Below, piece by piece: positions 503-57,947 of a stretch of 64,000 bases of DNA. The notes under the pieces are model-generated. The model was given only the letters and a program-made list of their open reading frames with translations. It had not been told where the DNA came from and ran no database searches. The position numbers and the translations under genes were made by a program. Each line of letters starts with the position of its first letter. Within the stretch, counting starts at the first letter, position 1. This stretch comes from Octopus vulgaris. Its lineage: Eukaryota. Where the stretch lies: assembly GCA_951406725.2 (NCBI GenBank), contig OX597815.1, forward strand, positions 123,814,001-123,878,000, given 5' to 3'.

Positions 503-644
503 ACGATGTAAATTTGTGACCTGGATATAGAAACTGGAGGTTTCGAAGTAGTTGTCGATAGTTACCCTTTTTGTTTTTGATTTTTATAGAGCTATTCAGA
601 TCTGCTAGACAGCTGACCTCTTTGACGGTATATACTTTTTCTTG
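503..644 (-). mobile_element. Diverged fragment of R4-like RLE non-LTR retrotransposon (TACA-associated family)
   Basis: Minus strand reads QEKVYTVKEVSCLADLNSSIKIKNKKGNYRQLLRNLQFLYPGHKF, which aligns by eye with [45 protein letters not shown] at 1198-1373. Its 5' end abuts the (TATG)n tract. Confidence 0.7.
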
Positions 645-761
645 TATGTATGTATGTATGTATGTATGTATGTATGTATGTATGTATGTATGTATGTATG
701 TATGTATGTATGTATGTATGTATGTATGTATGTATGTCCGTATGTATGTTTGTATGTATGT

Positions 762-1376
762 ATTTCAATATTCAGTTTATTTCAAGATTTCTTGCCAATA
801 GAGAAAGAATCGGTTTCTAACCTAGATCTAAGCTCCTTCATTGGAATGTCAATATCAACAACAGGATATTTTTGTATGTATGTATGTATGTATGTATGTA
901 TGTATGTATGTATGTATGTATGTATGTATGTATGTATGCATGCATGCATGCATGCATGCATGTATGTATGTATGTATGTATGTATGTATGTATGTATGTA
1001 TGTATGTATGTATGTTTGTATGTATGTATGTGCAGATTTGCATGCATTATGTATGTATTCTCATGCATATAGTTGCATATCTAGACATGCTCATATATAT
1101 TTAAATGATAAACTTCTGGAAAGTTTTACAGATTTTACAGTTCCAGTGATGGATTGGATCTGTAGTCTTGTGAAGCCTAATTTCTCGAGATTGATATTTA
1201 GGTATTAATTACAGGTATAAACCTGAACTTGTAATCTGGATAGAGTAACTGCAGATTTCTCAATAGTTCAGCATAGGTGTTCTTTTTTTCACTGATCTTT
1301 AGCTTTATGTTAACGTCCACTGGGCTGCTAATTTCCACAACTGTGCACAATTTCTCTTCTCTATCCCAAATAATTA
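762..1376 (-). mobile_element. 5'-truncated R4-like RLE LINE 3' end with 3' UTR (TACA-associated family)
   Basis: Minus strand encodes [55 protein letters not shown]...LQIQSITGTVKICKTFQKFII*, an RLE endonuclease C-terminus. The 3' UTR contains an internal (CATA)n and ends CTTGAAATAAACTGAATATTG before (ACAT)n. A homologous copy lies at 57358-57862. Confidence 0.8.
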
Positions 1377-1689
1377 TGTATGTATGTATGTATGTATGTA
1401 TGTATGTATGTATGTATGTATGTATGTATGTATGTATGTATGTATGTATGTATGTATGTATGTATGTATGTATGTATGCATGCATGCATGTATGTATGTA
1501 TGCATGTATGTATGTATGCATGTATGTATGTATGAATATATGTATGTATGTATGTATGTATGTATATATGTATGTATGTATGTATGCATGTATGTGTGTA
1601 TGTATTTATGTGAGTACATGTGTATGTATGTATGTATGTATGTATGTATGTATGTATGTATGTATGTATGTATGTATGTATGTATGTAT

Positions 1690-2029
1690 GTGCAGATTTG
1701 TATGTTATATATATGTATTCTCATGCATATATTTACATATCTAGACATGCTTATATATATTTAAATGATAAACTTCTGAAAAGTTTTACAGATTTTTATA
1801 GTTCTAATGATGGATTTGACGTGTAGTCTTCGAATTAGCTTTCTCCTTTCTGGTTTTGAGACGCCTAATTTCTCATGATTGGTATTTAGGCCTCCAATAA
1901 CATGCAATCTGGATAGAGTAGTAACTGCAGATTTCTCAATAGTTCAGTATAGGTGTTCTCTTTTTCACTGATCTTCAGCTTCATGTTAACATCCGATGGG
2001 CAGTTAATTTCCACAACTGTGCACAGTTT
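1690..2029 (-). mobile_element. 5'-truncated TACA-associated RLE LINE fragment
   Basis: [37 protein letters not shown] plus the same stop and UTR as 762-1376; flanked on both sides by (TATG)n. Confidence 0.8.
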
Positions 2030-2104
2030 ATGTATGTATGTATGTATGTATGTATGTATGTATGTATGTATGTATGTATGTATGTATGTATGTATGTATG
2101 TATG

Positions 2105-2133
<29 letters not shown>

Positions 2134-2135
<2 letters not shown>

Positions 2136-2880
2136 TAGTTCAGCATAGGTGTTCTCTTTTTCACTGATCTTTAGCTTTATGTTAACGTCCACTGGGCTGC
2201 TAATTTCCACAACTGTGCACAATTTCTCTTCTCTATCCCAAATAATTATGTATGTATGTATGTATGTATGTATGTATGTATGTATGTATGTATGTATGTA
2301 TGTATGTATGTATGTATGTATGTATGTATGCATGCATGTATGCATGTATGCATGTATGCATGCATGCATGCATGTATGTATGTATGTATGTATGTATGTA
2401 TGTATGTATGTATGTATGTATGTATGTATGTATGTATGTATGTATGTATGTATGTGCAGATTTGTATGTTATATATATGTATTCTCATGCATATATTTGC
2501 ATATCTAGACATGCTTATATATATTTAAATTATAAACTTCTGAAAAGTTTTACAGATTTTTATAGTTCTAATGATGGATTTGACGTGTAGTCTTCGAATT
2601 AGCTTTCTCCTTTTTGGTTTTGAGACGCCTAATTTCTCATGATTGCTATTTAGGCCTCCAATAACATGCAATCTGGATAGAGTAGTAACTGCAGATTTCT
2701 CAATAGTTCAGTATAGGTGTTCTCTTTTTCACTGATCTTCAGCCTCATGTTAACATCCGATGGGCAGTTAATTTCCACAACTGTGCACAGTTTATGTATG
2801 TATGTCTGTATGCATGCATGTATGTATGTATGTATGTATGTATGTATGTATGTATGTATGTATGTATGTATGTATGTATG
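2134..2880. repeat. Tandem duplicate of 1262-2133 (LINE fragment + microsatellite + LINE fragment + microsatellite)
   Basis: 2134-2248 nearly equals 1262-1376, and 2455-2793 nearly equals 1691-2029, including the same internal deletions. Microsatellite lengths and internal variants differ. Confidence 0.9.
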
Positions 2881-3090
2881 TACGTCTCTTCGATTTTTTA
2901 ATTGCTACAAATCTTCCACTGACGAGGGAGCCAATTTCAACGATACAAGGCTCCATGGGATGCAGTTAACAAATTCACTATTGGAACTTGAGAAAAGTCT
3001 TGCATATTTTAACCGTTCCACTCACAGATTGGACTTGTAATGTACGAATCAGGGGGCCAATTTCTCTTTTTGAGAAAACGACCAGTTTAT
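2881..3090 (-). mobile_element. 3' end of a related RLE LINE subfamily with a different 3' UTR
   Basis: NKLVVFSKREIGPLIRTLQVQSVSGTVKICKTFLKFQ* matches the family C-terminus LQIQSITGTVKICKTFQKFII. The UTR is unrelated, but the fragment is again bounded by (TATG)n on both sides. Confidence 0.75.
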
Positions 3091-3802
3091 TTATGTATGT
3101 ATGTATGTATGTATGTATGTATGTATGTATGTATGTATGTATGTATGTGCAATACAAACACAATGGTCAAGGTTTGAATGCGTTTGTATGTATCTGTAAT
3201 GACAAGAAGTCTTCCCCTTTTTAAGATGTTACAATATGGCTTGACATAAATTTCGATGCTAGTCAATCGAGTGGCTATGAAGGAATTCCTCTTTTAGCTC
3301 ACACATATTTATAAATTTCTATTAACCAAAAATATATGGTTTGAAAAATAGCAAAGATTTATTAATATAATATCCTTTCTTGATTAATTCTATGCGATCA
3401 GTTTGAGAAAGTGCACACTAAGAATATCATTACATAAAACGACTAACATATATAATTCTTTCTAATTTTGGTGCAAGGGGAAGGGGCACGCCGATTACAT
3501 CGATCTCGGTTCTTAACTGGTATTTTCCTTTATCGAACTAGAAAGAAAGAAAGACTAAGTTGAACTCAACATTTTATCCGACGCGTCAACAATACTATTA
3601 ATTAAATTTATACTTAATGAGTCTACTTTGAAAGGGAAATAATTCTGTAACCATGTTAAGAGTTACTTACCCTGTATTGCCTTCATTAAAACACTGCAGC
3701 TAAATTTTGCTATTAAATAAAGATAAACACGGTCAGCTGGTATTATTTATTTATTTATTTATTTATTTATCTATTCATTTATTTAATTATTTATTTAATT
3801 AT

Positions 3803-4101
3803 TTACTCTTTCCTCTTACTCCTTTACTTGTTTCAGTCATTTGACTGTGGCCATGCAGGAGTACCGCCTTTAGTCGAGTAAATCGACCCCAGGACTTATT
3901 CTTTGTAAGCCTAGTACTTATTCTATCGGATCCCTTTTGCTGAACCGTTAAGTTACGGTGACTTAAACACACCAGCATCGGTTGTCAAGCGATGCTGGGA
4001 GGATAAACACAGACACACAATCATATACACACACAGACACACACAGACACACACAGACACACAGACACACACACACACATGTATGTATGTATGTATGTAT
4101 G

Positions 4102-4157
<56 letters not shown>

Positions 4158-4315
4158 ACGAGCTTCTTTCAGTTTCCGTCTACCATCCTCTCACAAGGCT
4201 TTGGTCGGCCCGAAGCTATAGTAGAAGACACTTACCCAAGGTGCCATGCAGTGGGACTGAACCCGCAACCATGTGGTTGGTAAGCAAGCTACTTATCACA
4301 CAACCACTCCTACGC
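3803..4315 (-). mobile_element. tRNA-derived SINE, family A (CORE-like CCTTGGGCAAGT segment, internal TA/CA microsatellite)
   Basis: Reverse complement matches the full + copy at 28996-29394 (head GGAGTGG(C/T)TGTG...GGGTTCAGTCCC; tail CAGTCAAATGACTGAAACAAGT). Confidence 0.85.
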
Positions 4316-5191: not shown

Positions 5192-5951
5192 GAAGATACC
5201 TGTGATATAAAAATCGATGAGCACGTTATATTATCAATGACAAATTATCGTTTGTAATTGTGCTTTCTATAATCATAAGTCGGCAAATAAATAGTCTTCT
5301 TGTACCTGTATGTTAGTGGATTCTGTCCGTGTGTGAGGTTTTCTCGATCATTGCTGATATGGGACCAAAGGACAACATCAACTGCGACGACAATTAATTC
5401 AGCTTGTTTAGTTATAAACTGTGACATATTCTTTATTACTTTGTTATACTGCTCTAGAAAACTTTCTATTCGCTGAAGTGAGTAAATATGCAAATCTGTG
5501 ATGAAATTGTTGCTGGCGATGTGTTTGTATGGGAAATGTATGTGTGCATGTATGTATGTATGTATGTATGTATGTATGTATGTATGTATGTATGCATGCA
5601 TGCATGCATGCACGCATGCACGTGCGTGTGTGTGTGTTTCTGTGTATATGTGAGTGTGTGTGACTGTATATGTTTTGAAGTGAATTAGAGCGAGTGATTT
5701 CATTAGTTAAAAGACACACACAGACATTCTTATGTTTATTTTTATTTATGTCGAGATAGAAAGACATATAAGTGCTCAGTTCAATATTGTGTTCGATCTG
5801 TGTAGAGTCTGAAGTGTGTATATTTATTCATATGTTATTATATTCTACGGATTTGTACAGTTTACCAAGAAGCTGAGTGGACGAAATCGTGGTTCGGAAA
5901 TGTAAAGTTCGGTTTACCTTACGCATGAATAAACGCAAGGCTCTCTCTGTC

Positions 5952-6016
<65 letters not shown>

Positions 6017-6032
6017 TTCTCACTCTCTCACG

Positions 6033-6110
<78 letters not shown>

Positions 6111-6719
6111 TGCATACATACTTTCATACATGAAGCATGCATACGTACACACACATATATATATATATATATACATCAGAATGTGTGAATGTGTATATAA
6201 ATGCGTTGTGTGTTATTGCTAGAAACTCTTAAAAGTCGAATTTCAACATTTGATATGATTAAACACCGAAATTATATATTTATTTACTTGTAAAGTCGGC
6301 TTAGTTTCATAGTATAGACTTCTTCATATTTCTGTTTTGATCAAATCATTGTTTACTTGCATGGATTGTGTGTCATTCAGGCAACGAAACTCTGCACCTT
6401 GTGCGACCCCCGACTCTTGTCGGGCTTGTTTTCTGCACTGCTCAGCTCGTGCCACCTTTTTGACCTCCGACAGTTATGACGTAAAGCAAATTTCTCAATG
6501 ATCCAGCAGTTTCTTTATATATATACGTACTTCAATGAAGTCGTGGGACCCCGCTAAGCACAGAACATAATATCTAAAGCCCATGCAGTAGAATAGTGTC
6601 TTCAAGTAAGTCAGTATGAGAAGTACATGAAAATCTATGCTATCGTAATACAATAGTATTACAAAAGCCTTAGAGAACCTTTAGTAAATGAAAAGTCGTA
6701 CATCAAGGTAAGATGAAAG

Positions 6720-55948: not shown

Positions 55949-56834
55949 CAGGGTGTTTGAAAAGTAACTCCCTATTTTAAAATACTTATAATTTATTCAA
56001 CGATAATTTTTTTCTCAAATTTGTTGTATCTGTTCTTTGATGTATGGGGATTGATTCTATGTTGTTAGATTTTCTTTCAAATTGATTATTTTGTTTGAAA
56101 TTTAGAAGCCTTACAAACATCGCCTGATCTCTTTAAAAATATCCTCTGGAGTGATGAAGCGGTATACGACTTGATGGGTTTGCGAACCGTCGTAGCTGCA
56201 CTACTGGGCTGGAGAAGATCCTCGTGTTACCTCTGAAAAAATGCAGAATCGGTGCAAGGCAACGGTATTTTGTGGAATGACTTCGGACAGGATCGTAGGT
56301 CCTTTCATCCTTTGCAATACCATGAATGCGGAAAGGTACCGCACCATGCTGCAAGATGAAATCAGGCCAGTTATCAGTACTTGGGAGAATATTGAAGATT
56401 TGATTTTTATACAAGATGGTGCTCCTCCACATGTTGCTATTGTTGTTCGTAAATGGGTGAATACCCACTTCCCTGGGAGATGGATGGGTCGTCGAAGTCC
56501 GCATGATTGGCTGGCCAGAAGCTCTGATTTAACACTCTGTGACATTTGTCTTTGGGGTTGGTTAAAGGAGCAAGTCTACTCTACCAAACCAACGACTTTG
56601 GAAGAACGTGAAGGGCGAATACGAGAAGTTATGTCTTCCACCTCACAAGAGTTCCAGTTGATGCGATTCCCGGGCCTCTTCAGAAGCTGGTGGCGAATGC
56701 TGGTGTCTATATCGAATTTTAAATAAAACTTCATGCTTTGTGCTTTCTACACATATTAAGTTTTTCTAAAAATCATTGTTAATAAAATAAATTATAAGTA
56801 TTTTGAAATATGTAGTTACTTTTCAATCATCCTC
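55949..56834 (+). mobile_element. Internally deleted DD41D (rosa/Visitor) Tc1/mariner transposon
   Basis: TA|CAGGGTGTTTGAAAAGTAACT...AGTTACTTTTCAATCATCCTC|TA imperfect TIRs of about 50-70 bp. LWSDEA lies at about 56143, and the ORF at 56241-56726 has QDGAPPH followed by 41 residues to the D of SDLTLCD. The DNA-binding domain is missing. Confidence 0.85.
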
Positions 56835-57328: not shown

Positions 57329-57357
57329 ATATGTGTGTGTATAAGTATAAGTATGTA

Positions 57358-57861
57358 TGTCATTATTCAGTTTTATTTCAAGATCTCTTGAAAATAGAGG
57401 AAGAGCCGGTTTCTGACCTAGATCCAAGGCTCCTTTATTGGAATTACAATAACATCAACAGGGTATTTGTGCAGATTTGTATATTTTGTTTTATGTATCA
57501 CTTCTCATGCAAATACTTGCATATCTAGACATGCTCATATATACTTAAATGATAAACTTTCTCCTTTTCTCCTTTCTGGTTTTGAGAAGCCTAATTTCTA
57601 AAGAGTGGTGTTTAGGCAGTGTGTTACATATCCCAGTGCCCCAATAATTACAGATATAAACTTGAACTTGTAATCTGGATAGAGTAACTACAGTTCTCTT
57701 AATAGTTCAGCGTAGGTATTCTCTTTTTCGTTGATTTTTAGCTTTGTGTTATCATCCGCTGGGCAGCTGATTTTCACAACTTCTCTATCCTAAATCATTA
57801 TATCAGGTCTATTATGTTTACATTTCATTGAAGTTTTCACTGGGACATTCCACTAGTACTC

Positions 57862-57862
<1 letters not shown>
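57358..57862 (-). mobile_element. TACA-associated R4-like LINE 3' end (intronic, degenerate)
   Basis: WNVPVKTSMKCKHNRPDIMI...ISCPADDNTKLKINEKENTYAELL...IIGALG. The UTR ends CTTGAAATAAAACTGAATAATG-ACATACATAC. Confidence 0.8.

Positions 57863-57947
<85 letters not shown>

Follow-up and report, generated by a model that had tools for sequence, protein, structure and literature searches.

Near one end of a 64,000-nucleotide stretch of the Octopus vulgaris genome (contig OX597815.1, referred to here as the window), fragments of LINE retrotransposons lie one behind the other in a field of (TATG)n that spans positions 643-3148, and the embedded LINE pieces are all on the minus strand. The arrangement raises the question of whether these elements insert into a microsatellite that is already present, (ACAT)n when read in the direction of the elements, or whether the repeat is made or spread by the elements themselves. 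An earlier note on this DNA had proposed that an R4-like family with a restriction-like endonuclease (RLE) targets the repeat. From the evidence below, we consider it probable, with good confidence, that two families of a Dong/R4-like lineage, A and B, gave rise to these now decayed fragments, and that the copies arrived by target-primed insertion into existing (ACAT)n.

Four independent insertions can be recognized in the field: a family B copy at 2883-3090, family A copies at 1691-2028 and 763-1375, and a B-like fragment at 506-642. These are the four same-strand fragments of the earlier note, and their places and strand hold; its statement that each is bounded by the repeat does not hold for the outermost one (503-644 in that account), which touches the repeat on its 5' side only. 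This piece (506-642, minus strand) comes from the endonuclease region, is 5'-truncated at the tract and is cut off on its 3' side, with no ORF end, UTR or tail. The neighbouring (ACAT)n tract (643-762, minus strand) is both the 5' boundary of the B-like piece and the tail of the following A copy. That copy shows the true 3' end of family A, a terminal piece of about 107 bp (766-871, within a feature at 763-875) that is 92% identical to the terminal piece of locus L030, followed by the internal (CATA)n tract of the family A 3' UTR (876-1031; median 54 bp in other copies) and the last 400 nt of the family A body (1032-1375), which is 5'-truncated in (ACAT)n. Beyond a compound (ACAT)n tract (1376-1690) lies the second A copy (1691-2028), also 5'-truncated, which stops at the internal tract and shares about 80% identity with 1032-1375. 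Another (ACAT)n tract (2029-2133) leads to a block with a tract in its middle (2134-2793), which by sequence identity is a local duplicate: 2134-2247 agrees with 1262-1375 at 113 of 114 positions, and 2455-2793 with 1691-2029 at 334 of 339. Being duplicates of their neighbours, these fragments are not added insertions. The (ACAT)n tract at 2794-2882 is the tail of the B copy, whose 3' end (2883-3090; ORF end and short 3' UTR) is 5'-truncated in (ACAT)n, with the tract of that junction at 3091-3148. All of these features are on the minus strand, where the LINE pieces resemble the C-terminal part of an RLE LINE, and the stacked copies diverge by about 20%. A count of seven independent insertions was rejected, since 2134-2793 is a local duplicate and four is the maximum; an assembly artefact was also rejected, as only this duplicate could be one and the remaining pieces are at most 80% alike.

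A separate family A copy, consisting of the last 500 nt, is found at 57351-57865 on the minus strand. It ends in the 10-bp tail ACATACATAC, as had been reported for it, but on the 5' side it borders on (AAAG)n rather than (TACA)n. It carries both halves of the A 3' UTR without a tract in the middle, and because the same halves are joined here tract-free, the tract at 876-1031 is counted as internal to the 3' UTR. None of the six other long ACAT-type tracts in the window adjoins an A or B piece. Two further repeats were noticed in the window, a common SINE-like repeat whose two pieces are separated by runs of (AC)n, (TATG)n and (AT)n (3820-4310), and a decayed Tc1/mariner-like transposase element with inverted ends and flanking TA repeats (55950-56830, read by eye).

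Families A and B are related, old and broken LINE families that encode a reverse transcriptase (RT) and an RLE; the pieces at 2886-3090 and about 506-642 belong to B and its older relatives. Searches of the 2.8-Gb genome with the 3', middle and 5' parts of A returned 3,097, 2,173 and 417 candidates (best 40 scored in each case), and two B queries returned 1,828 and 1,328, totals that are not copy numbers; a search for the full-length 5' junction as an exact pattern of 31 nt hit three places and is too strict for a copy count. In full-length natural A copies, which share 81-87% identity, a body of 3.8 kb is followed by an internal (CATA)n tract and the 107-bp terminal piece. No intact copy was present among 138 family A matches, the longest open frame being 654 aa, and searches of Pfam and PDB sequences with short family A pieces gave no informative match. 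The 3' UTR of B is short, and identity among the top B copies is about 88-91%. The ORF region of A contains an in-frame (GTA)n run, about 730-760 nt from the 5' end, that varies from 3 to more than 40 units (L066, L069, L071 and L087). The A terminal piece, which resembles the B 3' UTR, is often solitary behind the tails of other copies, with up to three in a row (L273, L207, L208 and L274), and in L274 (about 5600-6610) a 1-kb (ACAT)n tract separates two B-like 3' pieces.

To count junctions across the genome, family A loci were picked by the score of the body, not by flank, and comprised 30 of the 40 loci from each of the three part searches, 30 of the 138 further matches and 19 extensions; they were mapped to three natural copies, and duplicates were dropped. 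A junction was scored as positive if a perfect sense (ACAT) run of at least 8 bp lay between 30 bp upstream and 12 bp inside the element. By automated calls, 79 of 125 family A 5' boundaries outside the window had a sense run and none had an antisense run. The background was 1.8% at 5,400 window positions, and 3.0% sense and 3.5% antisense in the flanks (6,034 positions); inside the A element, such runs occupy 0.3% of positions. Hand curation removed 19 boundaries, all from the negatives (internal deletions, interruptions, a split at an internal TAG repeat and distant relatives), giving 79 positives in 106, while the raw 79 in 125 is the unbiased figure. By either count, the 5' truncation junctions are mostly in sense (ACAT)n, contrary to the alternative named in the earlier note, in which the repeat is only a 3' tail. 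The truncation points cover the entire 3.8-kb body. Ten full-length A 5' ends begin behind ACAT or ATTC repeats; L068 and L071 are full-length copies preceded by (ATTC)n, not (ACAT)n.

The 3' ends of A tell a similar story, with a sense run at 47 of 66 and an antisense run at none, and the first ten bases there are ACATACATAC, at 79-91% per position. For family B, in counts that are uncurated and include four B reference copies, 5' boundaries were sense at 27 of 48 and antisense at 2, and 33 of 45 3' ends were positive. Orientation is likewise fixed rather than random among neighbours: of 44 pairs of adjacent copies at most 400 bp apart, 43 run head-to-tail and one is opposed, and 15 of the 43 join A to B. 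The feature of a sequence-specific LINE, namely independent copies with both ends in the same repeat and in the same orientation, is seen here, at about three quarters of curated 5' junctions. No ACAT run was found at 27 of the 106 curated A junctions and 21 of the 48 uncurated B boundaries, so either the preference is a loose one or later events altered many ends. Tract lengths are also lopsided, with a median of 64 bp at positive A 5' junctions versus 12 bp at 3' ends, and in 55 paired copies the tract was longer at the 5' end in 30 and at the 3' end in 20 (p=0.016). Random nicking along a long tract would not predict this asymmetry; on one reading, the protein may need several units upstream and few downstream, and only tracts above a few units would later expand.

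Other repeats share these flanks. A repeat with a GGTGGCTGCCCCCTCG-like start occurs directly after (ACAT)n in the flanks of L010, L024, L050, L116 and L121, where it shares the tracts, and is possibly a non-autonomous partner. The independent A insertions L018 and L053 have 5' flanks that share a repeat end, ..GAGTGACCTG, followed by (ACAT)n, which represents another ACAT-tailed family. L076 and L173 have a common flank ending in ..TATAATAAGAGAT, in one case beside an A copy and in the other beside a B copy; this flank is probably the end of a different mobile repeat that inserted later.

Intact relatives were found outside the octopus families. An A copy contains the open piece P0002, which matches intact proteins of 1,130-1,160 aa at 42-52% identity. 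Pfam detected RVT_1 in P0003, P0006, P0008, P0011 and L225, and no APE family in the five intact relatives searched. The CCHC, RHD, PD, E and K motifs could be aligned across P0002, L225 and a further octopus family, D (see below), and the intact relatives have a single ORF with RT, a CCHC knuckle and a C-terminal RLE. A metagenome scan gave 44 loci, of which nine are close relatives; the other 35 (L230-L264) match in the RT only distantly and were set aside. The full element L225 lies between (CATA)26 upstream and (ACAT)28 downstream and has an open ORF of 1,132 aa. The repeat (CTTA)n flanks L223 at both ends, L221 and L222 at the 5' end only, and L224, L228 and L229 at the 3' end only, L228 and L229 being nearly one element. 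L226 has no repeat at its element ends, and L227 has no ends. The L225 element is present in runs of nine studies. In the run of one organism, 292 of 426 aligned contigs were at least 99% identical to L225 and depth climbed towards the 3' end, a pattern as for a young multicopy LINE. Among the upstream loose ends listed for L225 (199, 391, 1903, 3160, 3435, 3875 and 3921), ACAT was found at two of seven; one adapter-like end was excluded, and the listing is a subset of ends that gives no count.

Family D was found by searching the octopus genome with P0003. Its loci (L210-L220, e.g., L212:949-4653) are flanked by (TAA)n, have open frames of 1,235 aa and are 98-99% identical, and the family is likely still active. 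It shares 34% identity with P0003 over about 1,000 aa, with the N-terminal domain in common. All 11 of its 3' ends carry (TAA)n, as do 6 of 11 5' boundaries judged against one reference copy, beyond which the other five reach; an ACAT run occurs at neither end. In this respect family D matches the descriptions of Dong. A quick IQ-TREE tree of 47 rows, midpoint-rooted and built with one distant APE outgroup and no named R4-clade, HERO or NeSL sequences, groups A with B (SH-aLRT 100) and places the pair in a larger clade of 28 rows (100) that also holds L221-L225, L228 and an Argonauta protein; D falls outside that clade. Since ACAT-flanked members are scattered in the tree, the repeat likely changed more than once. 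An identity of A/B with the young, Dong-like family D was rejected, as both branch and repeat are separate. The R4-like placement advanced in the earlier note is backed by domain order and by likeness to the (TAA)n-flanked family D, not by a tree with named R4 elements; as a proxy, the relatives match D at E 1e-150 and R2 at E 3e-28.

A structure model of the L225 protein (pLDDT 91) had R2 target-primed reverse transcription structures as its best match (Foldseek E 2e-35, TM about 0.6). The intact relatives have an N-terminal three-helix domain that aligns with that of family D, and no zinc finger was seen in the N-terminal columns of their alignment; the R4/Dong clade is not known to have N-terminal C2H2 zinc fingers. 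Foldseek with the N-terminal domain of L225 gave nothing at E 0.001, and its similarity to Myb is weak (best Z 6.1, rmsd 3.0 over 65 residues), with telomere-repeat binders at the top. Rfam searches of seven loci, including family D, found no ribozyme, only repeat-driven matches below gathering scores. In three full-length relatives, L222 (position 81), L223 (119) and L225 (136), a GGAYGTG motif follows an A of the upstream repeat at a distance of exactly 27 nt, a spacing noticed after the fact, with a poor match in family A and none in L221. It resembles the downstream promoter element of Drosophila LINEs, given as RGWCGTKY at about +29 to +36 (PMC1636488), and the repeat may supply the transcription initiator. 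If so, a copy would be expressed only in the right microsatellite and in the right orientation. The wider picture, in which a Dong/R4-like branch in several animal hosts went from TAA to TACA/TACT and used the repeat as both landing site and transcription initiator, is speculative, and we regard it as unlikely in this full form.

Whether the target precedes the insertion is addressed most directly by L284, where a truncated B copy interrupts the 3' UTR of an A copy at an ACAT-rich site. The terminal piece of the host A copy resumes beyond it, with about 25 bp of host lost. It was the one clean nest in 20 fetched regions, several predicted double terminal pieces being absent. No empty site was recovered for 61 paired copies, whose flanks were paired to one repeat in the local pool; only the copies themselves and microsatellite noise were returned. 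At 18 of the 49 positive truncated junctions clean enough for such a count, at least 2 nt of microhomology with the tract was present, versus 8% expected. The 5' boundary counts, the head-to-tail neighbours and the B-in-A nest together mean that the repeat is not merely a tail.

The main rival is that the 5' tract is made during insertion by template jumping: the RT would leave a truncated template, move to the (ACAU)n tail or the internal tract of an element RNA and slip while copying it. In that case a few matching bases would suffice in the target, and stacks in head-to-tail order would record one jump after another. The junction microhomology fits a jump equally, and the greater length of 5' over 3' tracts speaks for it, as do some 3' flanks that look like coding sequence of other transposons right after the 10-bp tail (L030 and L137, read by eye). 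A joint in run X18, where 21 nt of (TACA)n bridge the overlapping element positions 701 and 650 of L225-type pieces, is a hint of template switching. However, jumping does not sit well with the nest in L284, where host sequence resumes downstream, nor with stacks that unite different families (15 of 43) or, in the window, copies some 20% apart. Element tails are short, long ACAT tracts exist without these LINEs, as the six elsewhere in the window show, and the same anatomy is found in family D, which is of a kind described as TAA-specific. Taken together, we judge jumping as the source of the 5' tract to be quite improbable.

A different division of labour, in which nicking is loose and only nicks that pair with the ACAUAC tail of the RNA are extended, is a variant of targeting and not an alternative to it. 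The fixed 10-nt ACATACATAC at the 3' end would fit, as would A copies that stop at the internal tract with the terminal piece absent (1691-2028 in the window; L121, L281 and L282), and template homology is described as able to redirect R2 targets (PMC13586686). Pairing at the 3' end alone would leave the long (ACAT)n upstream of the 5' junctions unexplained, and we hold this variant to be possible, though on the doubtful side. Far less credible is a passive origin, in which elements land at random and tracts grow later from element-borne seeds or mark tolerated sites; passive accumulation has been suggested for Drosophila Waldo-A/B (PMC3812793). Although the genome is rich in such repeats and copies differ in the length of the internal tract, from 0 to over 300 bp, the strand bias strongly disfavours it, with 79 sense and 0 antisense runs where the background is symmetric (3.0% and 3.5%). 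Because in-body ACAT runs occupy 0.3% of positions, the truncation points hold no seed, and relatives have a different but again fixed repeat.

The best reading remains that the A/B lineage consists of Dong/R4-like LINEs that insert into (TACW)n. By analogy with R2 and Dong, the element protein would bind the repeat, with the N-terminal three-helix, Myb-like domain as the candidate reader, and would nick the (ATGT)n strand. The ACAUAC end of the RNA could then pair with the nicked strand and prime cDNA synthesis, and the end of the cDNA would be joined to upstream (ACAT)n via short microhomology. Since each insertion would leave ACAT on either side, the next insertion would be offered a target, and repeated rounds would build fields such as 503-3148. 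The flanking repeat of relatives is (ACAT)n or (ACTT)n, which makes TAC-A/T the likely unit read by the lineage, whereas its sister branch uses TAA.

Waldo belongs to the R1 clade. Among LINEs described as microsatellite-specific, Waldo targets ACAY, Mino AC, Kibi TC, Koshi TTC and Dong TAA, and how their specificity is set and changed is given as not known (PMC3812793). Dong and Rex6 insert in TAA repeats (PMC1635306, PMC3812793), and Dong is placed in the R4 lineage, with an HDV-like ribozyme at the 5' end of both R4 and Dong (PMC3774820). Dong of Bombyx mori, DongAg, DongBg and Rex6 resemble the A/B lineage in having a single ORF with RT and C-terminal RLE and a microsatellite at both ends, but the repeat of A/B is (ACAT)n, and that of relatives also (ACTT)n, not (TAA)n. 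Unlike the Dong-like family D, A and B are old and broken and sit on a separate, well-supported branch. WaldoAg1, WaldoAg2 and WaldoFs1 share the ACAY-type target with A/B but are of the APE type (PMC3812793); because the proteins of A/B relatives have no APE domain, the common target would be convergent. Togen, which targets TG, and some microsatellite-specific HERO families are RLE LINEs like A/B but are placed near NeSL/HERO (PMC4640811), a comparison made by description, with the repeat of the leech HERO family not given in the available part of that source. R2 provides the best structural match of the L225 model and the template for the priming mechanism, but differs in its 28S rDNA target, its N-terminal zinc fingers and a sequence match of only E 3e-28. 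Dong-R4 LINEs have been reported from octopuses and other cephalopods (PMC9115989, PMC13282606, PMC10294476), including five recently active families (PMC13282606), and the available parts of these accounts do not mention a target. Further literature used in comparison was PMC5035012, PMC7650587 and PMC13580325. In the literature covered, with Repbase and Dfam entries lying outside that scope and a database description being possible, no RLE LINE was described as targeting (TACA)n or (TACT)n, in agreement with the earlier note, whose author knew of no such case.

Families A and B likely select ACAT repeats as insertion sites, and this would extend a known kind of site-specific retrotransposon by one more target. 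The intact relative L225, from another organism, makes the targeting testable, and the clade offers a natural series of TAA, TACA and TACT, with intact members in family D, L225 and L221-L223, that is suited to finding out what determines the target, be it the endonuclease, the Myb-like domain or the tail of the RNA. For uses of microsatellite markers, a caution follows, in that markers of the ACAT type may share LINE flanks. For the genome itself, the finding explains a common feature, the LINE fragments stacked in (TATG)n fields, and places two targets, TAA and ACAT, within one genome.
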